A stretch of 47,590 nucleotides of DNA from Psammoneis japonica (taxonomy: Eukaryota), in contig QPGO01000167.1 in the NCBI GenBank assembly GCA_008632985.1, forward strand, positions 124,001-171,590. The letters run 5' to 3'. The number at the start of each line of letters is the position of its first letter. The first letter of the stretch is position 1. A program made the translations under genes and the position numbers. The notes beneath the pieces were generated by a model. It was not told where the DNA came from. It searched no databases and saw only the letters and a program-made list of their open reading frames with translations. Of the stretch, positions 3,001 through 38,445 are shown piece by piece.

Positions 3001-3650
3001 GTGCTTTTGATTTCCTTGCTTTTCCTTTTTTTGCTCTGCTTTGGCAGCAATGTCTTTTGTGAATGTCCCCAGCAAACCTTGGAGTTTTTTTCGCTCATTT
3101 TGCAAGCTGTTGCTCGATGCAATCAGGCCCAACCTTTCTCCTGAACTTTGTGCACAGTCCACTCCTCAACAGGAGATGGCACAATTGGCTCATCTTTGAG
3201 GGCAGAGAGCAGCAGCAGCAGCATTTGCAGCCTTGAGTGGCTCATGCTTCTTCAACATGGCAGCTGTCTTGGCATTTGCAGATTTCAGCTGCTCTTGCTT
3301 GTGCAGCGAGCTCTGGAAACCAGGTGAGACAGCCTCAAAATTGACTCATTTTTGGAGTGTGGCTGTTTCCATCTGCTTCTGGTTGCTTTGGGCATGCAGG
3401 TTGCTGTGCTGTCTTCAGGCTTTGACGTCAAGAGAAGCTCCTGAGAATCTTGGGGCAGAGCTCTTCTTGGGATGGGGGTTCTTCTGGCACTGCTTGGCAG
3501 TCAAGCTGGTGTGAAATTTCTCAGATGACTTGGTTGTGATAGCAACACTGAGGCAGACATTGCAGAAGTTGTTGACACCCAATCTGGTCAAGTGCTTGTA
3601 GCAAAGAACATCCCTCCAAGGCATCTTTTGGGGCAATGGTCAGTGGTGCT
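1..3650. mobile_element. TpA-depleted decayed repeat/transposon block, family not identified (runs off left edge)
   Basis: Very few TA dinucleotides in 3.6 kb, strong TG/CA excess, many short Cys/His-rich Tyr-free ORFs in all frames. Same signature as the recognisable TEs elsewhere in the window. No transposase motif confidently recognised. Confidence 0.5.
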
Positions 3651-3996: not shown

Positions 3997-5859
3997 ATGA
4001 TTATGTCCAGGTGTTTCACTTTGACATTCGTCGCGGCATTCATCGCTTCTTCCTTAGCACAAAACGCGACGAAGCCAAATTTCATCCTCATCATGACGGA
4101 TGATCAGGGTATGGATGATTATGGCTTTCGCCAGCCGCCGCTGGAGACGCCAAACTTGGACAAGCTAATGAAAGATGGAGTGCAATTCGCCCGATTCTAC
4201 ACGGGAACCGCATGCGCTCCGACCCGGTCTCAGCTAATGACAGGAAGGCACTTTCTGCGTACGGGAACAGTTGGAGTAGGTTTCGGGAGAGATGCACCAC
4301 ATCTGAATGAGTATATGCTTGGAGAGGCCCTTCAGGATGCCGGATATGTTACTGGCATGGTCGGCAAGTGGAATCTCGGAACCTCAGATGCTGAATTGCC
4401 CCATCGACGTGGCTTCAACGAAACATGGGAACTGACAGAAGCAGAAGTTCGTAAGCGCGGCAAATACGAACACTTCAATGCACCTTTTGCTCAAAACGGT
4501 GTACCTCGTGGTATTGAGCCAGGCTGGCAGGTTGAGCGCGTCACAGACAAAGCACTCCGTTTCATTAGCCGCAACAAGGAAGAACCATTTTTTCTTTACA
4601 TTCCTTACGCACAGCCACATGAACCGTGGCTATGCCGAAAGGAACTTCAAGAAAAATACATTGAAAAAGGCATCGGAGAATCGTATGCTATGCTCCTTGG
4701 TATGCTAGAGCAAATGGATATCCAAGTTGGGCGAATTCTTGATGCACTGGAGCGGTATCGTCTCTCTCACAAAACCATGCTAATCTACTTTGGCGACAAC
4801 GGTCCCACTCCAGAGACAAGACTCCTCGCTCAGGATTCAGATGGTAACTTCAAGCCAACTGGCGAAACATATGAAATGAACGACACAGAATGGGCGGCAC
4901 GCAATCCGACAGGTTTGCGATCCAAGAAGGCAACCTGTTGGGAGAACGCTGTTCGCAACCGGCTCTCCTTTTATTGTCCGGCAAGACTTAACGCCAAAAT
5001 TGTCCAAGACATGACCATTGTATATGACATTTTTCCGACGTTACTAGATTTGGCCGGACAATACCAACGTTACAAGAGCAAAAGTGGTGTGCCACACTTG
5101 GATGGCCAAAGTTTCCGGCGCTTGCTTTTTCAAGACAACCCCGGCTGGACGCAAGACCGTGAATACCTTGTTGCAAGACTCGGACAACCTGCTAAACATC
5201 TAGCTCCGGATGGCTGGTACTACCGCTTCACTAAGGAGTATTCTTTTCGATTAGGAAAGTCGGAATGCGCACTCGTTTCAGGTCCCTGGGTGGTCGTCAA
5301 CGAAGAAGGTGCATGGAGTTTGTACGACCTTTCGAGTGATCCCGGTCAGGAGAACGACCTCAAAACGGTCCTGCCTGAAAAGTTTCTTCAAATGGCAAAC
5401 AGATTTTATTCTGTGCTGCATGATGTAAGCCACGATACCCATTCGTGGTCGAACCCAATCCAAGTAATTGGACTTCCAGGCATTGAACAGCCATACTTGG
5501 AGATGTGTTATGTGTATCGCTTCAAGGGTAGGAACAAAGTCGATTGGTTTTATACGTTCTTCGAAGAGGTTGGGGCCAGTCAGGATCTGGCAGTTCGTGT
5601 GCTCGAGTCCGGCACATACAATGTGATGCTTCGCACAGTGCGTGCTCCTTTGCGTACCATGGTTCAGTTCCATGTCGGGGAACAGAAAAAGATTTCCTTT
5701 CTCAACAAGTACGGCCGCATGCATCACCTTGGTAAGTTTGACTTTGAAAAGGGAAGCTATAACATTGGAATGACCATTGTTGAGTCGGGAAACCTTGCAC
5801 AACTCCAGAGAATGGCTGTCTTCAGTGTCCTCTTGAACAAAGTGACCGGGGAGACGTAA
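3997..5859 (+). CDS. Secreted formylglycine-dependent (S1) arylsulfatase, intronless, 620 aa
   Basis: Signal peptide, PNFILIMTDDQG, catalytic CAPTR (CxPxR) followed by LMTGR, GYVTGMVGKWNLG, PHEP, GDNG, K-x-x-x-WE and LYDLSSDPGQENDL motifs. Normal TA/Tyr content. Confidence 0.95.
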   Translation: MIMSRCFTLTFVAAFIASSLAQNATKPNFILIMTDDQGMDDYGFRQPPLETPNLDKLMKDGVQFARFYTGTACAPTRSQLMTGRHFLRTGTVGVGFGRDAPHLNEYMLGEALQDAGYVTGMVGKWNLGTSDAELPHRRGFNETWELTEAEVRKRGKYEHFNAPFAQNGVPRGIEPGWQVERVTDKALRFISRNKEEPFFLYIPYAQPHEPWLCRKELQEKYIEKGIGESYAMLLGMLEQMDIQVGRILDALERYRLSHKTMLIYFGDNGPTPETRLLAQDSDGNFKPTGETYEMNDTEWAARNPTGLRSKKATCWENAVRNRLSFYCPARLNAKIVQDMTIVYDIFPTLLDLAGQYQRYKSKSGVPHLDGQSFRRLLFQDNPGWTQDREYLVARLGQPAKHLAPDGWYYRFTKEYSFRLGKSECALVSGPWVVVNEEGAWSLYDLSSDPGQENDLKTVLPEKFLQMANRFYSVLHDVSHDTHSWSNPIQVIGLPGIEQPYLEMCYVYRFKGRNKVDWFYTFFEEVGASQDLAVRVLESGTYNVMLRTVRAPLRTMVQFHVGEQKKISFLNKYGRMHHLGKFDFEKGSYNIGMTIVESGNLAQLQRMAVFSVLLNKVTGET

Positions 5860-6929
5860 TCATTACTGCAGCATAGAATGGATAGTGTCACATGCCTTCA
5901 TTCGCTTTAGTCGCCATTACTTCATATCAAAATTTACATAAACTCCTACTTTCAAACACCATGAACTTTCTTTTCCTTGGGAGGAGCCGGAGTACCTTGT
6001 GCGCTTGTGGTTATCACGATCGAGACTTTGTTTGCACCTCTTTTGACGTGCCACATTAAAAGGGGCCGTGTCTAGCTACTAGGCCCTATTATTGATAGTC
6101 ACAATTCGTCAATCCCAACAATCCCGTGACTGCACAGGCGCTTCGGACAACATCAACCGGAACCATCCTGGGCCTGGAGATCCTGTCCCCTTTCTAACAG
6201 CCAACACTTTATCAAAATGTGTCGGCAGCTTTCAAAAATTGTGAGTGACTCGTAAGTTTCTTTCCAGCAAAAAAGACAAACTTGTGTCACCATTTGAGCA
6301 GGAAAACGGGCAAATCAATATATGGAAAGGAATATGTTGGCGAAACATCACCCCTGTTGCTCCTCGACGTTCGATGTCAGATCGGTGTCAACATGCCATA
6401 CCAAAGTAGCACCAACCGACGGGCAAGCATGATGTTCCGGTTCAAACCGTTACAGTTCGTGTGCGGTTGCGTTGTGTTGGGGACGTCTTCGGAAGTGAGA
6501 CTGTCGAAGAAAGTTACGTAGAATTTGTACTAAAACAGTCTGTCAATCAGTGCGATAGGGGTATTTGGGATGCGCTGGACAGATCCTACGTGTTTTTTTG
6601 TGCGTACAAATTGTACTGGGAAAACCCCCAAACGCACTGGCGATCAGACCGCCTTCGTCGATCTCACTTCCAAAGACGCCCCCCAGTGTTGTGGCTGGTG
6701 TTTTATTGCAAAAGAAGGCTCGATCGGCATCTTCTGCGCGAGCGCACTCCATGCGACGCACGACGATCGAGCGCTCATGCACTCCATCCACTCTAATCTA
6801 ACAAAAATGGAAACGCACTTCACCAAGTGATCTCATCGAGCCATCATCTGAGCCTTTGGTGTCTCGCACCGCTGCCCTTCTGAACCCCGAACCCCCACTC
6901 ATGTTGAACATGAAGTCTTCTGGAATTGT

Positions 6930-7140
6930 TCACACTTGGCACACACAGAGTGCGCTGCAGCTCTCCTCATGCTGGGCCTTTTCAGAAGTGCTGGGCAAGG
7001 GATGCTTCTGTGTGCATGTCTCACCAGGGCAGCACAGTTGCTCATGATGCCACTCAGTCAGAGGTTTTTTTTGCACCTTTGGCACAATGATTTTGTCCCA
7101 ACAGCACATCAGCTGTCGTGATGGATCTCCCCCAGGAAGT
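6930..7140 (-). pseudogene. Ty3/Gypsy integrase zinc-binding (H2C2) fragment
   Basis: Minus strand reads GG..RQLMCCWDKIIVPKVQKKPLTEWHHEQLCCPGET, then after a frameshift TEASLAQHF, matching the KIVVP..LQ..I.EWYH..LCHPGETRTE.TI.QHF pattern recalled for Gypsy pol; WYH has become WHH. Confidence 0.6.
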
Positions 7141-7908
7141 GCGTTGCTGTTGTGGACAGAGTGTGCTGCTGTCGTGCGCTCAGCAACGCGTGCTTGCCTT
7201 TCTGCTGCTCCAGCTTTGTTTGCTGTTTGAAGCTTGCCAGTGGAGCTGAAATGCATCCAAAGCAAATGCTTCATGCAGAAGATGCAGAAGATGTGTGTCT
7301 GGCATCTTGAAGACAGCAGGATTGCACTCGGAACCCAAACTTGGTTCCAGCACCCAGATGACTGAAGGGCATCTGCAACCAGGCCACACAGAAAACACAT
7401 CCCCCCCAAGTTGGGGCCCATCTTGGGGGACCCTTTTCACCCTCAACATGTCCTGCCCCTGCACCCCTCCGCTGCCACATGTTGAGGGGTCATGCCACAA
7501 CTTGAGGGTTTCCCGCCCCATTTGCACCATCTTGAGTGTCCCCGTGTCAAGGCATGTCACTTGCCCTGTGTCTCCATTGCATCATTCTGCAATGTAAGAT
7601 TTTCCTTGTGCATGACTGTGCAACATCATCCCATGACATCATTCTGCAATGTCAGATTTCTTTTGCATGACAGCATGATGTCACATCACAAATGCCAGAT
7701 TTGCCGCTCCTCAAGAACTGACCCAGCCAGATTGAGTGTTTGTGCTTTTTTCTCCATGGAACAACCACCTCCTGGCTCAAATCTGACATTGCGCAACACA
7801 GTGCATGTCCACTGGAGAGAGATTGTCAGCCTCACCATTTTGTTTTTTGGCAACACCACACACACCGTTGCACCGCCATCACAACCACTCTTTGCAGCTG
7901 ACACCACA

Positions 7909-8304
7909 GACGCGTTCCAGCCCTAGGTGGGAGCTCGTAGTACTGACGTGTGACAACAATAATTTTTATCATCCGTCGTATGTTTCGTACGTAGATTTCT
8001 ACGTGTGATATTTAAAAAAAATTGTCCAGACTCGCTGTTTTGCGAAGCCCCAGACGTTTTATATAACAAATTTATAGAAACAATAATGCGCCAGTTACAT
8101 TCTTCAATGTCTGAAGAATGTAACTGGCTAAGTAAAAAATGATGTACTTCAATCATGTGCGAGTTTGTGCGTTCGCAAAATTGCCTCATTTTCTGTTGGC
8201 GATCATTGACATTTTAATTACCGTATAATTTTACTACGGAGCTCGCACGTAGAAGTCTACGGGCCCAATGTCACACGGATTCCCACCTACGTCTGGAACG
8301 CGTC
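7909..8304. mobile_element. 396-bp MITE, copy 1 (unmutated)
   Basis: TIRs GACGCGTTCCAG...CTGGAACGCGTC extending imperfectly to about 24 bp; 4-bp TSD CACA (7905-7908 / 8305-8308); central 17-bp-arm hairpin at 8090-8128; second copy at 40833-41228. Confidence 0.92.
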
Positions 8305-9690
8305 CACATGCCTTTGATTGCACTCTTTCTTGCTCTTCACTCACTCAGATTGATCCTCACAGTTGGACTCTGCAGGGCACACTTTGAAGAGTTCTGGGTG
8401 AACAACATTGAGCACTTCTCCATGCTGCTGTCTCTGTGCACTGCACCCATCTTTGCTTGCTGAACAAACATCTGCTGCTCATTCTTCTTCATTTCTGTCA
8501 AAGCCTCACCTGCTGCACCTCTTTTCTTTTCCCGCACCATCTTCATCAATGTTGCCCTTGCTTTCTTGGTTGCCTGCGTGAACAACATTTGCAACAAAAG
8601 GAAGCGACAATGCAAGGCACACATGTGGCACACACTTGCCTCTTCAGTGTCATTGTCCTCCTCCACCAGCTTGGTTTCCCATTCTGCATCATGAAGCAAA
8701 CCTTGCAGCTTCAATCTTGATCATTTCTCTTGTCTGTGGTGTCCAGCCCATTCATTGTCCATGTTTTGATCTGGCCATGATGGTTTGGGGGTTCTGGTTG
8801 TTGGTGCCGTTCATGCAGGAAGGATGACTGAGTCTGCCCCAAACAGCACTCCACTGCAGTTGTTCATGCTTTGTGTCCAATGTTCAGTGGAAAAGTTGAT
8901 TTGTGTGTTGGTTGCAGCTCCATCGGATGTGTCCTTGGCAGTTTTCAAAGTTTTCACGGTTGCTGTTTGCAGGTGCTGGAAATGTTCATCGTTGAAGTTC
9001 TCAATTTTAAATTTGAACAATGACAGGGGGTGTTTATGTTCCTGATCCTTTTGAAGGACCATTGCCTCAAGAGTTCATCATCAATCTTGTTCAAAGCCGG
9101 CCCAATCTTCGTTGGCTTAGAAGTGATCTGCTATTGGCTGAAAACCAGGCCATGTTGCAGAATAAGAGAACCGACATCGAGTTTGTGTCGAAATAATAAG
9201 GATGTAGCGTACGGCAGGCGTAAAGTGGGTGTAGTGTGTGGAATAGATATTTTATGACACAAACCAGTGTCTATACACCTCTACAAATAATCATGTTTTC
9301 TTTTTTAACCGTGTGTGCAATAAGATGATTAGCTGGATACAATCGAGCCAAACGTTTTTGAGACGTTCGATCGACTCCTCGTCCCATCATCAGACACATA
9401 CAGTATACCACAAACTTTTTTTCGGCATTATGAGAGAAGGTGGATATATAGGAAGAGAGGAATGTTTCTGGGGAAAGCCTGTTTTGTAAACAAAAACATG
9501 GTTGCGTGAGTGCAAATGTTCAGTTTCTCTGGCGGTTCCTTATTGCGTGTCTCTTTCGTCTATCGTGTTGTGCGCCGCCGGCTCCCTCGTCGCGCACTCG
9601 TGTGCTGTTTATGTTCTGGACGCGATTGGTTCTCTTTGTGCTGCTCCTCGGTGGACAGTGTTCTAATGGTCACACACACACTTGTGCTTT

Positions 9691-15799: not shown

Positions 15800-17240
15800 C
15801 GAGCGATTGTCTTGGTGACAGTGACGTTCGCTGCGATTCAGACTGCCCCAACGACATTGTTGGGGGCAGGATCCACGACAATGGCAAAAGTTCCAAGGTC
15901 TTTTTCGGACGTCGATCCTGAGTTTTCAAGGGGACGGCAAGTCTGTGGAGACAGCCCCACTCGAACCTGGATGACCAAGTGCCGATCCTCCTTGTGATGA
16001 CACGGAGGTGGTGGCGTTTTACAACAATGCAGTTGTTGGTTCCAACCTGATTGTTCACCGCATGTGCACGCACCGCCCTGCCACCCCGGAGTTTTGCCTT
16101 CAAAACGTGACTCTGCTGCTCCTTCATTCTTTTTCACCGGGAGTCTGCGGTGAAAATGGCTGTGCTCAACCTGCAACATTCCATGGAACGTCGACATGCG
16201 AAAACAACGGAGGTGTTGACGCACTCCACTTCACTGGCAGTCATTCGGCTTCTGGACCTGCTGTGCCCCTCAATCTGCCAAAAACGCTGCTGCCTGTCTG
16301 TTTGTTGATGACCAGACTCCATGGGGAGTGACTGTTGTTCCAGGTGTCATCAGCCAGAATGATGCGCACGTGTCTGTTGACAAAGACACGGCTGAGCTTC
16401 ATCGAACCGTCATCAGTCTCTCATTGCCAAGCAGAGACTAAACTTTAGAGTCGCAACCATGACTCGTCTTCAAGAAGAAGAATTTCAAGCCGAAGCACCC
16501 AATGCGTGCAAGTCTTTTAATGTCCCACAAGAACAAAGGGTGCAGGTGCCCCTCATTGTCCTTTCTTTCTGTCGGAAAAAGAATGGTGCAGGGGGCTTGC
16601 CAATGATCCCTTTTGCACAGACTCTCCTCACCAAGAGCCAGAAGCTGCGGTTGACGCGGGTGCGATTGCAGGCTTTGCAATCCCAGGTTGTGCTTTGGTC
16701 TTTCTTGCATTTTACATTCACTGCCATTGCAAACTCAGGGAACAAAAGCACCCGCACAAGAAAATGTTTGCACGTCATGTGGCGCGAAACATCTCGATGG
16801 CACCATCGCCAGGAGGTCTTGGCCCCGAGAAGCCAGCCAAAGAGTTTTCTCACATTGACAAAGACAAGGGTGGTTGCATTGAGAAGGACAAGTTGAAGGC
16901 TTTTCTGTAAGATGGAAAGGCTGGCCAGTTGTCGGACCCCGATTTCCAAGCCTTGTGGAACTCTGTGGATCTCAAAGGCAATGGAAAAGTCAATTTTTTG
17001 TCGACTTCTGCACGTTTCTCAGTGGGTGTGGAGATGAGTTTGACGAAATGCATGCAGAGAAGGAGAAAATGTCATGTTCACAAAAGATCGAATTTGCTGC
17101 GAACCGTTTGTCCATGTGCTCCAGTGCGAAACCAGCAGGAGCTGACATTGTTGAAGAACAAGAAAGAAGACAAACCAGTGGCTGCAGCTCACAATGTTGA
17201 TTTGGCGCCATTGAATGCGGCGGAAGAGTCAGACGTGTGA
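15800..17240 (+). pseudogene. TpA-mutated pseudogene of a single-pass membrane protein with C-terminal EF-hand pair
   Basis: From 16611: FCTDSPHQEPEAAVDAGAIAGFAIPGCALVFLAFYIH (TM), then EFSHIDKDKGGCIEKDKLKAFL* and DFQALWNSVDLKGNGKVNF/VDFCTFL (EF-hand loops). Stops and frameshifts present. 5' limit uncertain. Confidence 0.65.
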
Positions 17241-17464
17241 AGCCATTTGGTTGGCAGATTAAAAAGGTTTGGAAAGATGTATTTAAAAAAAGTTTCTTGC
17301 CTGCAGTGAAACAGTTTCGACTGTGCTTTACTGCAAAGAAGGCGTGTGCGCCAGTAAAGTAGAAGTTTACGTGGGGTACCCGGAAAAAAAGATACCGAAC
17401 ATTCAATGGTATCCAGCATAAAAATGATATTTGTGAATTATCTAGTCGGATGCGTCAAGGAAAA

Positions 17465-19610
17465 GGCAGCTCGTCAAACAGTGTGGGGAAAGCTACATAA
17501 TGACACCATTGAAGTAGACGGTCATTCGTTGAGTAAGTTCCCCTTATGTAGCTTATAACTTTATAAGCTACATAAGGGAAGTTTATAAGCTACATAACGC
17601 AATGATTCAACAACCTGCTCTATGTAGCTTATAACTTTATAAGCTACATAAGGGGAGTTTATAAGCTACATAAAGCGATGCATTATACACTACATAACGA
17701 CAATCGATCAATTACTTAACAAGAGTCATTGTTGTCAGTATAGTGAATTCAGACGCACGACGTCCAGACGATTGAAGCACCTACGAAATAAAGAACGAAC
17801 GAACGTGAAGCCCTCCATCAAAACAACACAGGAAAAAGACCACATGATGGCAGCAACAGCCAATGCTAGATTGTGCCACCAAACCTTTTCCAATGCCAAT
17901 GCATTGCATGCCACATTTTGCTCTGACAAGCAGCACATCCATGAAAAGAGACAGGTTGGACAAAGTCCAAAAATGAGCGAGAAAACTCCTTCTGTGATTT
18001 TGTTGTCATCCACAATCTGGAATCTCACAACTTCAACAGCTGATGTTGCTTTGCCACCAAACTTTTCCCACCAACAATGCTGACACATGACATGCTTCAT
18101 TGCACTCGGAAAAGTGCACACACATGAGAAAAAAGAGAGGTGAGAGAGAAAGAGCCCGAAAATTGACAAACATTCCTTCTGAGTTTTTTTGCTGATGTTC
18201 AGGCTCTTTTCTCAAAACTGTGATGTTTCAATTTGCTCATTCTTGACAGATTGAAGAGTGCAAAATTTGTTCTTCAGACAGCATTTCAAGAGGGGAGACA
18301 AGGGGCGACTCAAGGGCACAGAGCATTCGTTGTGGCAATCTGCAATCTGCCACTTTTGGAAAAGTCTGGGAACAGCTGGCAAATGAGGTTGCTTTTGCCT
18401 CTGAACATTTGAGTGACTGCATGGGATGTTGCTCACTCTGGCTGCAGTGGCCGGCACCCAGGCGCAACTTCTTCTTGCAAAGATGTTCACGTGGCTTGGG
18501 TCCCCCCCACCTCTGAACATCAAGTGGAGCCAAAAAAGGTTGCTCCCTGGTGAGACATTGATTGACACTTCCAAGGAAGGGAGTGTCTTTCAATGCTGTG
18601 GGCACAAAATCTCGGCCGCAGCAGGAGGGCTGCACACTGACCTAAAAAGCTGGCGTGTGTGGGTTGACTGCTCTTGGCATCATGACTGCCACCACCACTG
18701 CCATTTTGACTGCCACCATTGCAACTTCTGCCATTGAAATTGCTGCTGTTGTGACTGCTGCAATTTCAACCACTGCTGTTGTGACTGCTGCCGTTTGCCG
18801 CTGGCGCCATTGCGGCTGCTGCCACTCGGACTGCACTGCAGCTGCTGCCGCTGCAGCCACTGCCATTGCAGCTGCCACTGTGGCAACCACCATTGTGGAA
18901 ACTGTGATTGTTGCAACTGCCATCATTGTGACTGCTGGCGCCATTTGGACTTCTGCTGTTGTGACCACTGTTCGGCTGCAGGGTTGGCTGCGAGGAGCTG
19001 CGACTGCACCACTGTTTGGACTGCTGCTGTTGAAGCTTGAGTGTGCTTTTGCTTTTTGCCTTGATTGGCAATGCTCTCTGCATCTTGCTTGTTCTGGAAA
19101 CATCCTGTTTTGCCTGACTGTGCCCTTCCTCTGTTTTTGGTCCCCCCACACAAATGCTCTTTTGCACAGCTGCCTTGAGATTTTCCAAGGACTGCTGAGT
19201 TTGTTTTTCCTCATCTCTTTTTTGCTTGTCAATCAATTCTTGCTCTAAAGCCTCTTGCCTTTCCCTTGCTCTGGCCACTTGCTGCTCTGCCATGACTGCT
19301 TTCTGATGCTTGCTTTCTTGTCTGGAGTGTGCTTCCACAATGGCCAAGGCCAACCAGGCACTTGGCTTTCATGCCAGCTCTTCTTTGGCATCACACTTGG
19401 CCCCAATGGAATTCCTTGTCCTTTGATGTGGGCCACTCTTCTGCCAGAGCCCTTTCTGCTGCCACCACTGCCGGCTCCGCCCATGGTCATTGATGCTGTT
19501 TTGTGTTCCTTCCAAAACTTTGACACCCGGGCTGCTTTGGCGTGTTGACTCTCGCTTCGCTCGAGTCGAGTTAATCAAAACGCTCTGCCCACACCAGGTG
19601 AAAAATTGCC
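17465..19610. mobile_element. Non-autonomous DNA-transposon-like element E1 with imperfect ~29-bp TIRs and subterminal palindromic repeats
   Basis: Left end GGCAGCTCGTCAAACAGTGTGGGGAAAGC vs right end reverse complement GGCAATTTTTCACCTGGTGTGGGCAGAGC (19/29 by hand). Motif TTATAAGCTACATAA repeated in both orientations at 17541-17675. Decayed minus-strand ORF remnants inside. Confidence 0.7.
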
Positions 19611-19616
19611 GGAAAA

Positions 19617-20071
19617 GGCAGCTCATCAAACAGTGTGGGGAAAGCTGCACAACAACACCATTGATGCAGACGGTCATTCGTTGAGCAAGTTCCCCTTGTG
19701 CAGCTCATAACTTCACAAGCCACGTGAGGGAAGTTCACAAGCTGCATGACGCAATGATTCAACAACTTGCTCTGTGCAGCTTGTGACTTTATGAGCCACA
19801 CAAGGGGAGTTTACAAGCCACACAAAGCGATGCATCACACACTGCATAATGACAATCGATCAATTGCTTGACAAGAGTCATTGTTGTCAGCACAGTGAAT
19901 TCAGACGCACGACGTCCAGACGATTGAAGCACCTACGAAATAAAGAACGAACGATGCTGTTTTGTGTTCCTTCCAAAACTTTAACATCCGGGTTACTTTG
20001 GCGTGTTGACTCTCGCTTCGCTCGAGTCGAGTTAATCAAAACGCTCTGCCCACACCAGGTGAAAAATTGCC
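19617..20071. mobile_element. Internally deleted 455-bp derivative E2 in tandem with E1
   Basis: 19617-19953 matches 17465-17801 and 19952-20071 matches 19492-19610, joined at GA microhomology. AAGGAAAA flanks the pair (17457-17464, 20072-20079) and GGAAAA separates the two elements. Confidence 0.8.
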
Positions 20072-20309
20072 AAGGAAAAATCCAATGTTGGATGGAAACT
20101 CTTGCAAACAGTTAACAGCACAATACAGCAGCGAAGCGCAAATTTTTCTCTACAGTAGAGTAGAGAAAAGAGATGAGCAATAACTGCTCTCTACTCTAGA
20201 GTAGCTGCTAGCTAGCAGAGAGTGACAGCACATCACTCTCTGATTGCTCTGTGTTGATTGTTTGGCGACGAAATGAACAAGCGCATCGCGTCGCGTCCCG
20301 CAAACAACT

Positions 20310-23300
20310 TTATTGCTGGATTTGAAAGGACGAATGCGCATACACAGCTCCGCCACCTGGCAGGGAAATCTTGAACTCTACTGTGAAACACCCCACGCCA
20401 AGCTCACTGTCATGATTCCGCACTTTGAACACCCATTTTCCACTGCTTCTGACAAGTCGCATGGAACCATCACGAATGCGGATTTCCTCGAGGGAGCTGG
20501 TAACGCCTCCAAACTTCAATGTCCCATTCACCCTTGGCTCTTGCCCTGTCTTAACCAGAGCCTCTGTCACCATGTTTCCGCTACAATCCTTCAGTTGAAT
20601 CTTGAGGAAAAGATGCTTCTGTGTGATTTTAAATGCTCTCTTTTCCAAGTAGGAAGGGCAAGTAAAGTCTCTGCCCTTGGCCGGTGCCGGGTGAACAAAA
20701 ACCTTACCCATTGGTCTTCTGGTCGTAATGTCACAGGGGACAAGAACCGTGCGTTTCACATGGTTCTTGTTGCCACACCCATCCTTCGCATGCATGTTGC
20801 TTTTGCATGTTCCAACGACGCCCACGTCAACGTCGACAGAGCGATTGATGTGTAAAATTGGTTTTTCGCCGCCGCTTTGATGTGGGTCGATGCCTGCATT
20901 TAGATCAGCTGTGCTGTTGCAGACAAGGGCAACAGACAGTTGAAGCGGCTCGCTTGTATTTCTTTCGCATTTTTCAGCTGTGGCGATCCATCTACGCCAG
21001 ATTGATTCGCTTGATTCGCAGCCTACCCGAACAGTAGAGCCGTCCTGTACTTTGTCAACATCTCTGCAAACGGTTCCACTTGTTGCAAAAGAAGCTGAGT
21101 CGGTGCTGGGACCACAGGCGGCGGGCTCCTCTTCCATCGTAGCACTTGAGTTGCTGCTCAACTGGTGGACTTGGGCACGGCCGGAGTTGTCCCACTTTTG
21201 TGATCCCACAACGATGCGATTGCCGTCTCCAGACATGGCGACGGTCGATCCCCACCGCACTCTAGACTCGGGATTCAAGCCCTGCTGAGCACCAAGCTTT
21301 GTCCACTTGTTTTGATTCTCGTCATGTTGGAGAACCATGACGCATCCTTGCTCATTGTATGTCTTGTCCCCAAAAATTTCACAACCCGGATTATGCAATT
21401 TACCCTCACATGCAATCTGGATGCACCCAACGGCGATGCGCAAACCATCATCCGAGAGAGAAACGGAAGTTCCGCATGCGTCACACTTTAATGCACCTTC
21501 GACAAATCCCCCCAAGAGCCTGTAAGTTGAAGTCTTGCTGTCCCATTTGTACACATGAACACGTCCTCGCCCTGTGTTGGGCTCCCCAACCGCCACAATC
21601 TTCCCGTCGCCAGAAATTGACAAGGTGCTTCCAAATTTTGTCTCACGGTCTACACCGCTCGACAATTTATCCCGCAGCTCCCACGTCGGCGTTGTGCCTG
21701 ATTCATTGAGGTAACAAACATGCAACTCTGATCGCCCAGCAGCCGCAATTAGCACCTTCCCATCTCCAGATAATTTGTGTGCCACAGAGAAACCCAATGT
21801 GTTCAGTGTTTGTCCAATTTGCTTCCATCGGCCACTGGTCCATTCGAACACGCGGCAACCATTGGCGTCAGGGTCTCGTGACTCTGGTGCGCACGAAAGG
21901 AACCTCGTTCCATCGTCTGAAATTGAGACTCCTGTACCAAAATACAAATCAAACGAATAGTCTCGCCCCCAAATGTCCTCTCCAACCTGTTCCCAAAGCA
22001 TTTTAACGGCATTCATCTTGAACACTCGAACCAAGCCATGTTTGTTGTTGGGGCTGTCATTGTCATCCGAGCCAACGGCAATGCATTCACAATTGGACGA
22101 CATTGAAACCCCTTGGCGGTCTCCAAGGCGGTGGCCTCGCTCTTCATTAATGATTGCGTTTCCAAAAGCGACAAGTTTTCCGTTAGACGTGACTCTTCTG
22201 ACTTCGACTTTGCCGGCCGTTCGTCTTCCGTGTCTGGGATGCTCCTCACCTCCTAGAGCGTCAGGAAATGAAGCCGCCACACACTTGCCATCCCTAGACA
22301 TTGAAACTGTCTGGGGGAATCTTTCATCGCGTTCAACGTTATTGTCACCCTCCCAGAACTTTCCAAGAGGCATCCAACTCAGCTCAGCACTTTTTTCATT
22401 TTTTGTTTCCTGTGCCGAAACAAACGCCCAAGTTGATTTCCGACCACAAAGACTTGCTGTCCGTCTCCTGAAATGTGAACGCTCGTACCCCAATGAGAGG
22501 AGGGGTTTGCTCGAATCTTGTCTTGATTTCCAACATGAATCCACTTGCCGAGGGTACCATCAAAGTCAAGTATGATTACATCACCTGAGCATCCCATGGC
22601 TAATCTCGTACCGTCGGATGAGATCGTCACGGACTTCCCACAAAAGCCATGTTCAAAGTTTCCAATGTGCCCGTATCCCGCAATCGGTTCACTGGCTCTC
22701 TTATATGTTGCTTCTTCAGACATCCACTTGTACACATTTACACGCCCGGTGTACCCTGCATCAATGACGTTTTCCACCTCAACATCGACTTCATGTCGTG
22801 TTGACCCAATGGCAATAACATCCCCGTTGAATGAGAGGGACATGGCATCCCCTAAATGAGGGCTACTGCCTTTTTCGTAAGCAGGTTGAAATGTGTTTCG
22901 CAGCTTCCACCTAGGTGGAGCAACAGATTTGTCGAGCTGATACACAAATGCTTTGCCCTTCGTATGGGGAACATCTGGAGCTCCAACAGCCAATGTTTCT
23001 CCATCACCAGACAGCACGGCGCTTTCACGAAACCTCGTCTTCTTCAGATTAAATGTTTCAAGGCTTTGTCCGAGTTGTTTCCATTTGCTGCTAGTCCATT
23101 CATAGGCGCGGCAGACTCCTAGTTCACATGAGGCAATCTTCTTGCCATCGTCAGATGTGGACAACTGTCGCCCGAACAACTCGTGGGAAGGTTCCTCTGC
23201 CTGAATGTCGAGTCCAACCTGTTTCCAATTATTTGAGGCATCGTCATTCTTGAAGACGCGGAGAATGGCCTTGGAGCTCATGCCTGTTCCAATGTGCTTA

Positions 23301-23818
23301 CAGTCAGACGAGAGCGCAATGCCAGTGGCTTGTTCAGAAAGGATTATCTCGTCTGCCGCTTGCACTTCCGCTAGCTTTACTTTCCCTTTGGGTTTTACCC
23401 GTCTAATTAAGACCTTTGTATCCGACGACACAGCAATGCATTCGCCATTCCTGGACATTGACGTGGCTCCTGCAAAAGGAATGTTCTTTGTTCCTCTCCA
23501 GACGCCTCCAACAGGACTCCATTCCATCATCCCTCTGCTGTTTGTGCTGCAGGATGTGACATCTTGGGAGTGGCCCAGGAAACGGGCCAGTTGATAATTA
23601 CCATTATTCGCTTTCTTCGCATTCAAGAGACGATAACGGAGAGGAACGACACGTTAGTTAGTTGAGAAATAACGAAGAGCATCCTTCGATTTCTATCGCA
23701 CAGGCTGACACACCTGATGGTTTTGTCTATTCCCATAAGTTGCAATTGCGAATATGGCCCAAATTAAGTACGATGCGGCAACAGGTTGCCTCTTCCTTGT
23801 TTCCATGGTCGTTTTCAT
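20310..23818 (-). CDS. FG-GAP/integrin-type beta-propeller repeat protein, tandem copy 1 (one frameshift ~22400, probable intron ~23615-23713; partly TpA-mutated, possibly pseudogene)
   Basis: Repeated FG.(S/T)(V/L)S(I/L)S.DG..(L/V)AVG.P and W.Q(V/I/L)G motifs across ORFs 22379-23626 and 20310-22544; colinear with copy 2. Confidence 0.75.
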
Positions 23819-24275
23819 TGTCTTTGATGTTCCGGATGTTTTTTTATGCGTTGTTGGTTGTTGGTCTGGGGTCTTGGGTCTTGAGACTCGTCCGGTAGTT
23901 GAGATAAAGTCATTGTTCTCGAATTTTTTCAATAAGTCTTTCATCGTGTACTGTACGGTACTTTCAGATATCCTCACGTGGATGAGACAAAATTTCTGTC
24001 TCGTGTGACTCAATGATGGGTTCGCATTGCATCATTTATAAATAATTTATTGCCCTCCGGTCATGAACCTCGTTAAATGAAAAAAGGCCTGCACGATTCG
24101 TCGATTTGAAGATTATTCCACTGGGATGCAGAGAAGACAACAACATCATCTATCAGTCACTAAAAACATAGACATCGTACTAAAGCACTTTGCATAGTAT
24201 TCATAGCTCTACTTTGATTCGAATTTCGCGTCTTAACGAAATGGATCGATCTCGTGCGCTCCGCTTTCTTATTTT

Positions 24276-27200
24276 CTACTTCTTGATTTGAAATGATGAA
24301 TGCGCATAAACGGCTCCGCCACCTGGTAGGGAAATCTTGAACTCTACAACGAAGCACCCTACACCAAGCTCACTCTGGTGATTCCGCACTTTGAATACCC
24401 ATTTTCCATTGCTTTTTGCAAGTCGCATGGCACCATTTTGAATGCGGATTTCCTCGAGGGCGTCACGGTTGTTAATACCACCAAATTTCAATACCCGGTT
24501 CACCTTTGGCTCGAGTCCTGTCTTAACCAGAGCCTCCGTTACCGTACTGCCACTGCAATCCTTCAGTTGAATCTTGAGGAAAAGATGCTTCTGTGTGATT
24601 TTGAATGCTTTCTTTTCCAAGTAGGAAGGGCAACTAAAGTCTCTGTCCTTGGCCGGTGCCGGGTGAACGAATACCTTACTCATTGGTCTTCTGGTCGTAA
24701 TGTCGTACGGAACAAGAACCGTGCGTTCCACTTTGTTCTTCTTGCCACAACCATCATTTACATGCACATTGCTAGTGTATGTTCCAATGACACCCACGTC
24801 AACTGCACCAGTAGCATCAATGTAGGCTCTTGGTTTTTCACCGACCGCATGATATGGCTCGATGCCTACCAATTGATCAATTGTGCTGTTGCACCCAATG
24901 GCAATCGCTATTTGAGCGGCTCATTTGTGCTGCTTTCGCATTTATCCATTGTGGCGGTCCATCTGCGCCAAATGTATTTGCTAGCTTCGCAGCCTACGCG
25001 AATCATGGCTGCATCGTCGTCGCCCTCTACCTTGATGTCGGCATCTCTACAAACAGTGTCACTCGTGGCGAACGCAGCTGGATCAGTGAGGGAAGGACAG
25101 GGTTCCTCATCCTCTGTGGCACTAGAGTTGCTGCTTAACTGATAGACTTGGGCTCGGCCAGTGTAGTCCCATTCTTGTGAACCGACAACGACGCGATTGC
25201 CATTTCCAGACATGGCGACGGTCGATCCCCAACGCACTCGAGACTCGGGATTCAAACCCTGTTGAGAACCAAGATTTGTCCATTTATTTTGGTTCCTGTC
25301 GTATTGGAGAACCATGACGAATCCTCGCTCATTCAACGTCATTTTCTTTCGAGCGCAACCAACAGCATTCAAGTTACCCTCGCATACAATCTGGTTGCAC
25401 CCCACGACAATGCGCAAACCATCGTCGGCTGAGAGAGAAATGGACGATCCACAGGCATCATATTTCAATACTCCTTCAATTGGCTCCCCCAAGAGCTTGT
25501 ACGTTGAAGCCTCTTTGTTCCACTGGTACACGTGAACCCGTCCACGCTTGGTGTTAGGCTCACCAACCGCCACAAGCTCCCCGTTGCCAGAAATTGATAA
25601 GGTGCTTCCATATTTTGTTTCAGGGTCTTCACCGCTCAAGAGTCGATCGCGTAACTCCCATGTCGGTGTTGCACCCGATTCATTCAGGTAATACACGTGT
25701 ACCTCCGGACCAGCGGCAGTCGCAACAAGCACCTTTCCGTCGCCAGACAACTCATGTTCCACGGAAAACCCCAAGTCATTTAGTGTCTGTCCGATTTGTT
25801 TCCATCGACTACCAGCCCATTTGTACATTCGGCAGCCATTTGTTTCGAGTTCGAGGTTTCGTGACTCTTGTTCGCAAGAAACAAATTTCCTTCCGTCGTC
25901 TGATATAGACACTCCGGCACCGAAGTATAAACGATACGAGTTCTCATGCCCCCAAACGTTTTGGCCAACCTGTTCCCAACTCATTTTGTCGGTGTTCATC
26001 TTATATACTCGAACCATACCATCTTTGTTTGAGCCTTCGTTGTCGTCCGAACCAATGGCAACATATTCACAATTGGACGATAGCGACACACCTTGGTGAT
26101 CTCCAAGGCGAAAGCCTCTCTCACTGTTGATGATTGCATTTCCATAAGGAACCAGCTTTCCACTGGACGTGATCCTTCGGATTTCGACTTTGCCCGCCAC
26201 TCGCCTACCGTGTACAGGATGCGCCTCTGCCAGAAAGTCAGGAAACGCAGCTGCAATACACTCGCCATTCCTGGATATTGAAACGCTCTGGGGGACCCCT
26301 GATCGTTGTCAGTCTTGCTTCCTCCCTCCCAGAAATTTCCAAGGGGACGCCAACTCAGCTCTGTGGGTGTGTCAACCTTTTGTTTCCTATACCGAAACAA
26401 ACGCCCAAGCTGGCTTCCCTTCACAAACACTCGTTTTCCGTTTCCTGAAATAAGAACACTGGTGCCCCACTGGTTTGAGGGGCTGGTTCGAATTTCGTCT
26501 TGGTTACCTACTTGAGTCCACTTGCCGAGGGTACTGTCAAACTCAAGTATGAGAACGTCGCCTGAGCATCCCATGGCTAATCTCGTACCGTCGGATGAGA
26601 GAGCCACAGACTTCCCACAACCATTGACATACTGTCCAATATGCCCGTATGCCGTGATCGGCTCGCCGACCCTCTCATAAGATGATTCTTTAGCCGACCA
26701 CTTATACACGTCTACTCTCCCGGTGTAACTGTAACCATATACCTTCTCCACGTTGAACTCTAGCTCATGTGCAGGTGACCCTATTGCCAAAACATCTCCG
26801 TTGAGTGAAAAGGATAGAGCATCACCTAAATATGGGTTTCCTCCTTCCTCACAGGCAGGCTGAAATTTGTTTCGCAGCTTCCACAGAGGAGGACTAACAG
26901 ATTTGTCCAGTTCGTACACAAAGCTGTGCCCTTCGTATCACGAACTAGAGGAGCTCCAATAGCTATTTTTTCTCCATCGCCAGACAAGATCGCGCTCTCA
27001 CGAAACCTGATCTTTTTGTCATTGAAAGTTTTAAGGCTTTGTCCAAGTTGTTTCCATTTACTGCCAGTCCATTCATACGCTCGGCAGACGCCTAATTCAC
27101 ATGATGCAACCTTGCTCCCATCGTCAGATATGGAGAGCTGTAGCCCGAACAAATTGTGAATAGGTTTCTCGGCCTGAATGTCGAGTCCAACCTGTTTCCA

Positions 27201-27762
27201 ACTATTTGAGACGTCGTCATGCTTGAAGACACGGAGTGACGACTTGGAGCTCATTCCTATTCCGATGTGTTTACAGTCGGATGAGAGTGCAATGCTTGCG
27301 ATGTTTTCGAGGTGGCCTGAAAGGAGTATCTCGTCCGCCGCTTGTACTTTCTCTAGCTTTATTTTCCCATTTGCAGTGACGCGTCTAATTACTACCTTTG
27401 TAACTAGCGAGACAGCAATGCACTCGCCGTTCCTTGACATGGAAGTTGCTCTCGCAATATTTCTCCAGTAGCCTCCAACTGGAACCAACTCCATCCCGTT
27501 TTTTCTCATTTGCAGGCGGTGACATCTTCTGAGCCGCGCAGGACACGGGCCGCTGGGTAAACACCAGTAGTGGCGTCCTTCGCGTTCCAGGCAATACCAG
27601 ACAGAAAGAATGAGAGTTGAAAAAAAGTAAAGAAGATCTCCTGCTAACCAAACAATCAACTCACCTGGTTTTGTTTGCGACTAGTGCCCAAAGTTGTACT
27701 TACTGTAGGGCCCAAATCAAGTACGACAAGGCACCCAAGTGCCTCTTCTTTGTTGTGTACAT
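24276..27762 (-). CDS. FG-GAP/integrin-type beta-propeller repeat protein, tandem copy 2 (single-base frameshifts ~26925, ~26295, ~24912; probable intron from 27664)
   Basis: ORFs 26826-27659, 25996-26919, 24908-26200 and 24276-24872 align end to end with copy 1; each break is a one-base loss relative to copy 1. Confidence 0.75.
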
Positions 27763-31429: not shown

Positions 31430-33400
31430 AGACATGGAGAGCATGCGGCATGGAACCATGTCCAAACAAGCTATGTTCTATTCTTCTGTCTCTTCTCACT
31501 TGAAAGGCATGTTTGCATTGAAGGTGGCATTGACACATCATGCATTTGCAGCACCAGTGTGAGGATTTTCAAACCGACAATGTCATTCTCCGTCTCCATC
31601 TTTCCCATCTGACATGCAACACTGTACCTCAAGACACACAGTGCCTCAAGACACTCCACAAAGTGTGTTTTAGTTTTTGTTTCTTGTTGCCTTCTAATCT
31701 GCAGATGAGGTTTGAGACACGACCTGAGCAACTTTGGGTCGCTGTCGGGAACGACTTGTGTGCCTTGTCAGCTCAGGGTTGTCATCAGAAGACCGTGTGC
31801 TTTGTGGTGACGAGGTGTCAACGAGTTTTGCAAACTTAAGACACACAGCACAGTGCCTCAAGAAATGCAGTGCCTCAAGACACCATCACGGAACACAGTG
31901 TGTTGCACCTCAAGCTCGTCTCATTTCTTGCCAAGTGGTGCATGACTGTCCTCTCTGCACTGCAGTGAGGTTGCGGTGTGCGCTGGATGACTTGAGACAG
32001 TGCCTCAAGAAATGCAGCACCTCAAGACACCATCACGGAACACGGCACATTGCATCGCAAGAAGCAAAACAACCCATTTTGTTCGTTGACGACAATGTGC
32101 TGGTGTGACCTGTTGAGTTCTCGCGATTGTTTTTAGAGCAAGTGACATTCATCCATGACACTGTCTGGCCATCTGCTGAATGTTGCAGGACGGTCCTTTG
32201 TTTTGCATGTTGAGTTCCTTGATCACCTGCTTCCAAATCGTCTCTCGCTCTTTCTCGCACAGAGCGAAGTGAGCTCTCAAATGGGAAAATTGCAGAACCA
32301 CATGCCACAGACACGGCAGGTGACACGGTGTTGGTCGGACACATGGATAAAAACAGCATTCTCGATTCATCAAGCGATGCACAAGAAGCATCTCAGTGCA
32401 CAATGAAGTGTTGCGAGAACACTCGGCTCACAATGTTGAGTGTGAAGTCATTGATCACCGTGGTTGTGATGATGGGGTGGCTTTGTCACTGAAGCATGGA
32501 AAGGAACAATTAAAATTAGTGAAGGTTGGAAAGACTGAACATGTGAGTTGATCCGATTTGAGCTGTTCTGCTCTCACTTCTGTTTCCATCTCTCTCATTG
32601 CTCCTTGTCCTTTTCAGTCTTTCAATTTGGATGTGATTCATGTTGGACTTGCAGCGAGACAGGCTGTTGGTCTTGGTTGCGGATCACGCACGTAAAGTCT
32701 GTAAGAATGGTGCCGCGCATGGGTGCACATTCTTGAGTGTCGAATGTCTGTCTGTCATCATGATTGCACAGTGGAATGCGCGATTTTTACAGAGCATTCA
32801 CTCATGAATGTCGTTGCATCTTCGCAATTCAAAAATCCCGCCGCCACCAAAGATTGCGTTGTTTCTGCGCCCATTGGTGCAGACCTGATCATGGTGTGTT
32901 TTTCTACAAGATCTTCTGCGGCGTCCATTTGGCCAACACAACAAGACACGCTGCACAACACCGCCATTGTCATCGCTCTCAACACCTCTTGAACCTCTCC
33001 AGGGGATGTTGACACTCAACATCCACATCAGTGTTGTCTTCGTTTCACTCTTCTGCTTCGTGGCAGCTCGTCGCGACCTAAGTTGCTTTCCTGCATTCCA
33101 TGAGTGAGGCGTCACTGCCCCACCAAAGAATCGCAATTCCGCGGATGTGTCAATCCATGCAACAAGTGACGTGCCGGTTGTTGGTGCTGCAAGTGTGACT
33201 GCGTGTGCACTGCATTGCATCATGCTGTCATGGTGGACTCATGATGCGTCTCGCATCATCATCTCCATTGTACATTTGAATCAGTCCATTGCCGGCAACA
33301 CCTTCCACCACTGCACAAAAGCCCCTGCCACTGTTGCGTGTGGATCCACGAGACAAGCAGCAACACAAAAGGTCCCGCCGCAACGACGGTTGCTTGAGCC
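31430..33400. mobile_element. TpA-depleted decayed block of unknown family with six copies of a (G)TACCTCAAGA-derived motif at 31620-32030
   Basis: TA depletion; motif variants GTACCTCAAGA, GTGCCTCAAGA, GCACCTCAAGA; ~55-bp duplication 31850/31997. Confidence 0.5.
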
Positions 33401-35429
33401 ATGTCCTCGAGTGCCGAGATTTCATCTGACCATGGTGGTGGCATCAATGGCCTTGTAGAACCTCAGCCGAACAAGCTTGTGACGCAGAACGAATCCATCC
33501 AAGCTCTGCGCATGTCAAGGAAATGTGTCGGCGAGTTGGAGGAGGACACAATGACAGAGTCCAGGCAGAGTGGTTCCCTTTTGAGCAACGAGGATGATGA
33601 TGACATTGAAAGCGAAAAGCTGTTGATGGATGAGGACTTTGTGTTTGACTTTGAAGACGACTTTGATGCCACGGATGCCACGGATTTGTCAAGGTGATTG
33701 GATGGTTGCAATGAGAGTGACATTGCAGAGGAGGATTCAATGACAGAGTCCAGGCAGAGTGGTTCCCTTTTGAGCAATGAAGATGATGATGACATTGAAA
33801 GCGAAAAGCTGTTGACGGATGAGGACTTTGTACTTGACTTTGAAGACAACTTTGATGCCACGGATTCGTCAAGGCAATTGGATGGTTACAATGAGAATGA
33901 CATTGCTGAACTTGTCGTGAAGTTCAGAGATGCTGCCGACAAAAGCAAAGCTGCGCATGAACTTTTCAGCCTTGAAGAAGAACCACTCCAAGACACAACA
34001 TCAAGGAAACCAACGAAGAAAAGGAAACGAGCAAGAGGTCGTCAAGCCGCCAAATCGAAGTTGAAGAAGCGTCGCAGGCGCACTGGGAAACCTGCTGCAT
34101 CGAAAGCTCCCCCCAAAAAGGTGAGTTTGTTTGCACTCAAATTATGATGATCTTGGTTTACAACTGGCACTCACTTTTGGCTTCTCCAGTTGTCGCGAAT
34201 GACTCCATCCAGGTTGAAGACAAAGGCCGATCAACAACAAGAAATGCTTGTGAATGTCGAGTTGCCACCAAGTCTCAACCTGGAGGCATCTCCAAGAGAA
34301 GCGATCACCAAAGTTTCGGAACTGGTGGAGAAGGTTGATTCGTGCCAACAAGCAAAGGAGCTGGCAACTCGAATTGATGCCTGCATCATCCTGTTTGCCC
34401 ATGCAAGAGGGCACACGGTTCGCCCTTTGAATCTTGGCAATGGGACATCAGACAACACAAAGGGAATCGCGCTGCTGCACTGCGCACCCGACGATTGCAG
34501 TTCTTGTCTCTCAATGCTGGACAAAGCTGTTGGGAATGGCTCATCATGCCTCAGCTTCATCTCCAACTCCAGTTGTTGCATCAATGCATGCAAGTGCATT
34601 TGGGCGGCAATGCATTGCAAGGAATGGATCAAAGATGCCAAGGAATTGGCCAAACTCATTTGTGCAGTTAACTTGAATCCAGTTCTGGCGGAGAAGAAGA
34701 GCAAAAACTGACAGCATGATGAGTTTTGTAGGACGGTTGGATGGTCTAAAAAAGAATGGCATTGGTTGGCCGCATTGAGAATGGAACTGCAGGCAAAGGC
34801 AATTTGCCTTCGAGACCGAAAGGGTGGTGCACAACTCACAGCTCTCCAGTGGATGAGCAAGTGTGATGCTGTCAAGATGCCTCACTGTGATTTCGAGACA
34901 AACGATGATCATGGCGCATGTCCCGTGCTTCATCCACAAGCATGGTTTGGTGCATCCATTTGTGCAGAACTCCTCGTGCTTGAGAATGTGTCGCAGAGGG
35001 AAATCAACGACTGCAGTGCAAACTGTTTTTGTGGGAAGGTTCTTGAGCATCAACACAAGACGAAGAAGGCTGCACTGTTCTCAAAACGTTTGCAAGCTGT
35101 GGGTGCAACCAAAGAGGATGTACGAGAGTGTGAGTTAGAGGTGAAGCTCATCAAGAAGGCAATGTTGGAGCTCATGCAAAAATTCAAAAAAAGCGTTTTG
35201 ACAAGAAAGAACTCAGCTGCTGGTCAAGAAGCTTGTCAACACATGAGAGAAATTTGTTTTAAGACATTGCACAAAGAATGAATTCAAAATGATCACCTCG
35301 AGTCAGAGACGTTCCATGGAATGACGCTGCATCAACACGCTTGTTGAATTCTCAGCACAGAGTCAGGGGCTGGAACGGGCTTGACTCTTTGTCAACACAG
35401 AACGGCAATGAGGCTGTTGTGTCATGGAA

Positions 35430-38010: not shown

Positions 38011-38262
38011 CCGGCTTGCCTCGGCCTCCTCCTCCTCCGCTTCCAGTCTGCACTCAGCTCCCAGGTCAAATGATTGCAGCACACCCGCGCTTGCTTCCAC
38101 CTCCTTTGCACCTCTCAGCGATTGCCGGTTCTCCACCCGTTGTTCTTCCTTCTGCTTCCGCCCCTTCACTCGTTCTTGCTCTTAATCCCGCCATGAAGAC
38201 AGCTGTTCAGCCCCAACAGCCTGTGCAGGTTGTGCATTCCTCCAACCCAGGGTTTGCATGCC

Positions 38263-38445
38263 CTCCGCCACCACCACAAGTGCACCCACTGCTGCCGCAA
38301 GTGCATCCGCCGCCACCGCAAGTGTGTCCGCCGCCGCCACAAGTGCACCCGCCGCCACCGCAAGTGTGTCCGCCGCCACTGCAAGTGTGTCCACCACTGC
38401 ATGTGTGTCCGCCGCTGCAAGTGCATCCGCCACTGCAAGTGCACT
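38263..38445 (+). repeat. 21/18-bp coding minisatellite PPPPQV(C/H), ancestral PPPPQVY inferred
   Basis: Units CCGCCGCCACCGCAAGTG followed by CAC, CAT or TGT. Confidence 0.8.

Follow-up and report, generated by a model that had tools for sequence, protein, structure and literature searches.

Does a TA-rich repeat copy that stands beside a TA-poor one record the making of TA or its destruction? Composition alone cannot tell these histories apart, and a reader used to fungi would call repeat-induced point mutation (RIP). The question is raised by a composite mobile element at positions 17457-20079 of a 47,590-nucleotide stretch of contig QPGO01000167.1 from Psammoneis japonica (the window, to which all coordinates refer), in which one arm, A, is duplicated as A'. 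We show that TA is the ancestral state and that it changed to CA or TG in A', and we consider it highly probable that the reading holds as a whole, namely that a TpA-specific process turned TA into CA or TG in a 2.1-kb block that contains A'. Six occurrences of a single 15-mer provide internal replicates, so that the direction can be fixed with no external reference.

The locus consists of two elements, arranged head to tail, of a small DNA transposon that has inverted-repeat ends and sub-terminal repeats. The long element A-X-B (17465-19610) consists of the TA-rich 5' arm A (17465-17802, plus strand), in which no site is changed, the internal part X (17803-19491), which is multi-copy in the genome and almost TA-free, and the 3' arm B (19492-19610, plus strand), which lies within the TA-erased block. 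A GGAAAA spacer (19611-19616), with 6 of the 8 letters of the flanking repeat, leads to the short element (19617-20071), which lacks X and is composed of the 5' arm A' (19617-19954, plus strand; 32 of 38 TA changed, last 60 bp unchanged) and the unchanged 3' arm B' (19955-20071, plus strand). The short element is a deletion derivative of the long one, and its A'/B' junction falls at a GA that also ends X (2-bp microhomology). Both elements share a single 8-bp target-site duplication, AAGGAAAA, which flanks them as direct repeats at 17457-17464 and 20072-20079 and has eight occurrences over the two strands of the window. The outermost 30 nt of A (17465-17494, plus strand; GGCA...GTGTGGG) form an imperfect terminal inverted repeat (TIR) with the end of B' (20042-20071); 19 of 30 letters match, and equally good matches make up 0.011% of random window 30-mers (fraction 0.00011).

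The palindromes built from the 15-mer are the sub-terminal repeats. As the first-pass annotation had described, 17541-17558 is the exact reverse complement of 17561-17578 across a 2-nt CT loop, and since 47.6 kb of sequence should contain about 7e-7 perfect palindromes of 18 bp (47590/4^18), it is not due to chance. The 15-mer TTATAAGCTACATAA occurs identically four times on the plus strand, at 17561, 17583, 17637 and 17659; it is also found inverted at 17544, within the left arm of the palindrome, and at 17620, there with 14 of 15 letters. A second palindrome, with 15-bp arms and one mismatch, spans 17620-17651, and each of two 76-bp sub-repeats (17536-17611 and 17612-17687, plus strand) contains a palindrome and a third motif copy. 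In the duplicate, at an offset of +2152, the forward motifs read TCACAAGCCACGTGA, TCACAAGCTGCATGA, TTATGAGCCACACAA and TTACAAGCCACACAA, just as that annotation had written them, and all six motif copies of A', the inverted two included, differ from one another. The occurrence of CA in one copy and TG in another at the same site is borne out at motif positions 4-5, 9-10 and 13-14. Since identical 15-mers had unlike outcomes, local sequence does not fix the strand that is hit. The hairpins are lost in the duplicate: with DNA parameters, the first palindrome folds with -15.4 kcal/mol in A versus -4.0 in A', and the second with -9.9 versus -4.7 kcal/mol.

When the ungapped duplication (17459-17801 versus 19611-19953) is tabulated by dinucleotide, 32 of its 39 differences over 343 positions are TA in A and CA (20) or TG (12) in A'. 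Six of the 38 TA of A persist in A'; TA in A' opposite another state in A is seen nowhere, and no TA site of A reads CG in A'. The remaining seven differences include two CpG sites of A with CA or TG in A', the two positions of a single site, 17501-17502, with TG in A and CA in A', one transversion, one C/T difference and one CA-to-CG change beside a changed TA; 12 of the 14 CpGs of A are intact in A'. The change reached 84% of the TA sites, and outside TA and CpG sites the two copies differ at only 3 of 343 positions, from which we conclude that the change was a burst rather than slow drift. The change extends to TA outside the motif copies, 11 of 14 being altered there too, and conversion among motif copies is rejected as the cause because these sites differ likewise.

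The sub-repeats supply a second internal test. They are older than the A/A' duplication because both arms carry both of them, and each is therefore an outgroup for the other. Among the 12 TA sites that the two sub-repeats of A share, five read CA in one sub-repeat of A' and TG in the other, four are concordant and three have one TA kept; 21 changes are needed with a TA root and 34 with an A'-like root. In one public DNA run, the contigs of which are our source for copies elsewhere in the genome, contig depth is greater on A (250-420) than on A' (115-195), and contigs on A differ from it by 13-16% (40 of 250, 26 of 170 and 27 of 206 letters). This pattern fits a star centred on the TA-rich copy, although it is not proof of one.

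Three further repeat pairs in the window add 27 TA-versus-YR sites (TA in one copy, CA or TG in the other), none of them reversed. A 400-bp inverted-repeat element is unchanged at 7907-8310 (plus strand, 31 TA), and 20 of the 31 TA are changed in its second copy at 40831-41234 (plus strand). The repeat copy at 38757-38937 (plus strand) and its partner at 45160-45340 contribute five sites. B and B' have four differences; at two of them B has TG and B' has TA, and the other two are T-to-C changes at sites other than TpA. All four pairs, A/A' included, have their changed copy within a TA-free block and their TA copy beyond it. The terminal repeats of the 400-bp element, taken as a second palindrome comparison, gave little contrast, and its inner hairpin (about 8092-8128) has retained its TA in both copies, the changed one included.

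Pooling all four pairs, the 79 TA of the outside copies read CA (32), TG (27), TA (20) and never CG in the inside copies, whereas independent hits on T and A should have produced about 10.9 CG (Fisher P = 1.5e-8). A single hit removes the target on the opposite strand, so that CG never arises, in line with the prediction for a TpA-specific attack that can fall on either strand. The changes from A:T to G:C on TpA account for 59 of 80 differences; the others are four A:T-to-G:C changes outside TpA, eight CpG transitions, the TG/CA site, one C-to-T change and transversions. None of the 59 changed sites is altered in the outside copies. The strands are hit about equally and in an interleaved manner (32 T-to-C versus 27 A-to-G; runs z = -1.54 and +0.67). 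CpG loss occurs alongside at a lower level, with 8 of 60 CpGs of the outside copies reading CA or TG in the inside copies.

The outgroup proteins of a reverse-transcriptase element point to the same polarity. The 775-aa open reading frame (ORF) of this element (41130-43454, minus strand) lies in a TA-erased block and has 95 relatives, with E values of up to 2e-197; some of them carry the reverse-transcriptase family PF00078, and the few named ones are from the diatoms Cylindrotheca, Fragilaria and Pseudo-nitzschia. The ORF contains 0.4% Tyr, 3.7% Cys and 5.8% His, compared with approximately 2%, 0.5% and 4% in the relatives. In an alignment with 41 of the 95 relatives (the best full-length and the named ones), ten columns in which Tyr is commonest have Cys four times, His three times and Tyr three times in the ORF, with Cys and His encoded by TGY and CAY codons, and in a count over 11 such columns Cys is absent from all 41 relatives. 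The ORF retains Phe at 11 of 11 consensus columns, and at several Arg columns it has Cys or His, which is the mark of CpG decay.

The changes are confined to blocks. Over the window, TA is at 0.37 of expectation, falling to 0.06-0.10 in some 2.5-kb stretches in which CA and TG reach 1.4-1.8, and 35 of 95 bins of 500 bp have a TA observed/expected ratio below 0.2. TA-poor blocks cover 1-3500, 7000-7500, 8500-9000, 16000-17000, 18000-19500 and 31500-45000, the last with a few bins merely at 0.2-0.4, and the genes between blocks have TA at 0.4-0.7 of expectation. The block that concerns us here (17803-19893) runs from X through B and the spacer into A', of which it takes in the first 277 bp, and X has 3 TA versus 105 expected. 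To its left, A is unchanged through its last TA (17789); to its right, the last changed TA of A' is at 19891/19893, the next TAs, at 19934 and 19941, are kept, and the three TA of B' are intact. The block is therefore a discrete region with edges resolved to 13-65 bp on the left and 41 bp on the right. The changed interval spans almost one repeat period (2152 bp), and the same 60-bp CpG-rich segment (17742-17802 and 19894-19954), identical in sequence, stands at both limits; it may be that the process is stopped by this segment, or else that the segment marks a later joint between changed and unchanged DNA. The idea of a block shaped like a transcript (one repeat period plus R) is unsupported, the block being slightly shorter than one period.

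The blocks contain the TIR element, the reverse-transcriptase element, a copy of a miniature inverted-repeat transposable element, a satellite and a gene-like EF-hand stretch (16000-17255). The EF-hand-like stretch as a whole (15800-17259) has 6 TA in about 1460 bp, with TA back at 17260, past a TGA at about 17238; a host gene or a pseudogene may thus have come to lie within a TA-erased block. Around the 400-bp element at 7907-8310 there is one TA (7595) across 6800-7923 and none in 8289-9007, and the element was probably inserted after the burst. The reverse-transcriptase element (38757-45340) is approximately 6.6 kb long, has 57-61% GC, is nearly TA-free and bears 181-bp direct repeats at its ends. 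The right repeat (45160-45340) is unchanged, the block ending at most 1-2 bases from the repeat start; the left repeat is part of a P-Q-P' arrangement (38609-39066) in which the two in-block copies differ by TG versus CA at four sites. About nine tandem 290-bp units (35315-37928) have lost TA to a moderate extent; seven of their columns mix CA and TG only, four CA, CG and TG, and two CA, TA and TG, so that this satellite mixes CpG decay with TA loss and is not decisive for a consensus. A GC-rich 21-bp tandem repeat of about six units (38264-38389) also lies within an erased block.

The counts and the comparisons of copies show that (i) A retains the original TA-rich sequence and A' lies within a block of TpA-specific mutation, (ii) the process works on DNA, on both strands and on either member of the T:A / A:T pair, and (iii) it came as a burst. 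As to the chemistry, we infer that a TadA/ADAT2-like enzyme, directed to silenced DNA, most likely deaminates the adenine of 5'-TA-3' to give hypoxanthine. In ADAT/TadA substrates U33 precedes A34, a context that fits the proposal of adenine deamination.

Several points weigh against the reading of a TpA-specific process acting on the block. Three positions with TA in A (17498, 17546 and 17622) carry the A' letter elsewhere among the matches listed (40 of 346), and 17498 is C in at least eight contigs with 445 of 639 depth among these matches. If found at all sites, such A' letters would fit a YR consensus; they can equally stem from copies that descended from an already changed element. At 17790, other contigs among the matches listed have TG where A and A' both keep TA. 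The context of the hits is weakly non-random: where the 3' neighbour of A on the edited strand is C, 21 of 38 sites were hit, compared with 18 of 41 where it is T, 14 of 51 where it is A and 6 of 28 where it is G (chi-square P = 0.011), context counts that are not independent of one another. Finally, the block edges lie near structural junctions of the repeat, and the contrast between A and A' may thus record history rather than position.

This last point leads to the alternative that survives best, which keeps the polarity and gives the contrast a historical origin: a TA-erased long element, for example a circle or tandem with its ends joined by GGAAAA, recombined with an unchanged short element, and the block edges are the recombination joints instead of the limits of the mutator. 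In its favor, the block spans almost one repeat period, both edges lie in the last approximately 60 bp of A and A', where the long element parts from the short one or close to that point, and unchanged DNA abuts TA-free DNA exactly at structural ends at 7907-8310 and at the repeat from 45160. With a single crossover, however, the last two TA of one copy would derive from the erased partner, yet each copy has kept its two, for which the chance is about 0.025 at a retention of 6/38. We do not favor the single-crossover model for the block edges, and we regard a recombinational origin of the contrast as a possible but rather unlikely explanation.

If we return to a TpA-specific process acting in place, the base under attack could alternatively be thymine: for example, a TET/JBP-type enzyme would oxidize the T of TpA, and the resulting 5-hydroxymethyluracil would mispair or be repaired faultily. 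Because TpA is self-complementary, T-to-C on one strand equals A-to-G on the other, and the sequence cannot tell which base was attacked. No observation made here points to thymine chemistry specifically, and the authors of a preprint on a related signature favor adenine deamination with an ADAT2-like candidate (bioRxiv 10.64898/2026.01.13.699255). We therefore consider thymine chemistry improbable.

Editing at the level of RNA, in which an ADAR-like enzyme would convert A to I in a hairpin transcript that is then copied back into DNA, shares several features with our data: the palindromes would give double-stranded RNA, and animal ADAR hyper-editing of double-stranded RNA likewise gives A-to-G changes, prefers U/T before A and typically has repeats or hairpins as substrates, the preference for U before the edited A being mentioned in the Discussion of the same preprint (bioRxiv 10.64898/2026.01.13.699255). 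However, the changes here are fixed in DNA and lie interleaved on both strands (20 T-to-C and 12 A-to-G in A', and 32 and 27 over all four pairs together), and this mix of strands refutes RNA editing for this locus. Moreover, the changes extend past the hairpins to 11 of the 14 TA outside the motif copies, the 2.1-kb block is mostly non-palindromic DNA, and A' is the end of an in-place inverted-repeat DNA element and not a retro-copy. Overall, we hold RNA editing to be very unlikely.

The process seen here and RIP resemble each other in that dense transitions in one dinucleotide cripple repeated mobile DNA, spare neighboring genes and generate sharp compositional blocks. RIP, as known from Neurospora and other fungi, needs a RID/DIM-2-type cytosine methyltransferase, acts before meiosis, turns C:G into T:A mainly by converting CpA to TpA, mutates both copies of a duplication and yields TA-rich copies of repeats; a RIP-like C-to-T process at CpA/TpG could thus have made A from an A'-like ancestor, each TA-versus-CA/TG difference being formally reversible. 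The direction is opposite, however: here TA is destroyed, and A:T rather than C:G pairs are changed. For A to have arisen by C-to-T changes, 32 of the 74 CA/TG sites in the A'-like ancestor must have been hit and yet, in the four forward motifs, exactly the 14 variable sites and none of the three shared CA (hypergeometric P = 3.5e-7), and the six motifs of that ancestor must have differed only at sites that all later became TA. What would count as the untouched state has 3 TA in X against an expectation of 105, the 41 outgroup proteins have Tyr where the window has Cys or His, a single copy of each pair is changed, and the mutated blocks have no excess of TA, their observed/expected ratio being below 0.2. 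A link to duplication as such is without support here. The first-pass annotation argued for a TA ancestor and held RIP of the TA-rich copy to be very unlikely; motif replicates, sub-repeats, CpG retention, the other pairs and the outgroup uphold both statements, and the RIP-like alternative is close to refuted.

A CpG ancestor that decayed through methylation to CA/TG in A' and in two steps to TA in A, which motif parsimony taken alone would fit equally well and which CpG decay within the blocks (the 8 of 60 CpGs, and TG versus CA at 17501-17502) recalls, is excluded for practical purposes because 12 of 14 CpGs are intact while 32 of 38 TA differ, and A would need double hits at all 32 sites; CG stands beside the variable motif sites of A' at only 1 of 24, and with 8 of 60 CpGs versus 59 of 79 TA changed, CpG decay is not the sole cause. 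Likewise, although modified adenines cause systematic miscalls in some long-read data, an artefact of assembly or base-calling at modified bases has next to no standing, as A' matches a 297-bp contig with 0 differences at single-copy depth (27.7; the run is possibly the assembly's own data), strand-wise miscalls would not exclude CG, and neither the Tyr-to-Cys/His pattern nor the many differently changed family contigs would be expected.

The TpA-to-CpA/TpG hypermutation at this locus is of the type reported for Bigelowiella natans, in a diatom-like genome. In that report, 230 of 231 new mutations in two viral inserts of B. natans are A-to-G or T-to-C, all on TpA, the signature was caught arising de novo, and the authors put forward an ADAT2-like deaminase (Mettrop et al. 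2026, bioRxiv 10.64898/2026.01.13.699255). The two systems share (i) A:T-to-G:C changes almost only on TpA, giving TpG/CpA, (ii) discrete regions with ordinary flanks, and (iii) long-term loss of TpA with gain of CpA/TpG, the TpA-poor genes of B. natans being enriched in transposon-type domains. They differ in that B. natans is a chlorarachniophyte whereas the named relatives of the reverse-transcriptase ORF are from diatoms; in that the change is near saturation here (3 of 105 expected TA in X) and Rho(TpA) is 0.45 in its nucleocytoplasmic large DNA virus region; in that the targets are transposons, a satellite and perhaps a gene-like stretch here and giant-virus inserts there; and in that CpG loss runs alongside here, where the evidence comes from the sequence of one genome without de novo events. 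Our full-text literature searches found no description of TA loss in diatom repeats, the preprint on B. natans being the only related report that they returned. Tentatively, and with less than even confidence, we propose that diatoms may possess a guided DNA mutator that changes A:T to G:C at TpA only, in double-stranded chromosomal DNA and in bursts, reaching >80-95% of its targets and stopping within a few tens of bp; it would be a natural adenine "base editor" that serves genome defence and is shared with, or convergent on, that of Bigelowiella, and the 60-bp CpG-rich segment would be its barrier.

The composite element itself resembles non-autonomous TIR transposons with sub-terminal repeats in its imperfect TIRs and 8-bp flanking duplication, the length of the latter being hAT-like, in the presence of a short motif in both orientations near the end, and in having a short derivative without the interior. 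It differs from them in that two elements occupy one target duplication and no transposase is recognizable. X, A and B are all multi-copy in the public run, with a summed word depth of 250-2200 compared with 27.7 for the contig identical to A'. No ORF of X matched a Pfam family, giving no sign of an autonomous member, and the one X ORF for which protein relatives were sought (18769-19368, minus strand) had 0 matches among 298 candidates. An X frame on the minus strand (18700-19000) is of low complexity, rich in Gly, Ser and Asn, with His or Cys where Tyr is usual, which would fit Tyr codons rewritten through TA loss. A metagenome scan with a 19-nt conserved stretch of A gave two loci, both of them chance matches.

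The window around this element is gene-dense and eukaryotic, with long intron-free ORFs for a sulfatase, a PPDK regulator, PPDK, and FG-GAP and discoidin-domain proteins. For the sulfatase gene (3997-5859), the nearest Protein Atlas clusters are all bacterial (Planctomycetota and Bacteroidota), which may reflect an old gene transfer or just the sampling of the Atlas; for the PPDK-regulator gene, they are plant and green-algal. A 3.3-kb gene with FG-GAP repeats is tandemly duplicated at 20316-27590, with 76% identity and ordinary TA in both copies. Rfam gave 0 matches in the whole window. The Pfam search of the TA-poor domains covered 121 of 128 stop-to-stop ORFs of >=90 aa, the seven ORFs of the 290-bp satellite being excluded, and it found no credible family, with four weak matches below cut-offs.

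Whatever its chemistry, the mechanism must explain why 84% of TA are hit against a background of <1%, why the strands are hit about equally and without double hits, and how edges sharper than approximately 60 bp arise. If the process is enzymatic, this would be a second lineage with a TpA-specific A:T-to-G:C DNA mutator, and whether the two lineages share an old eukaryotic defence would become a testable question.

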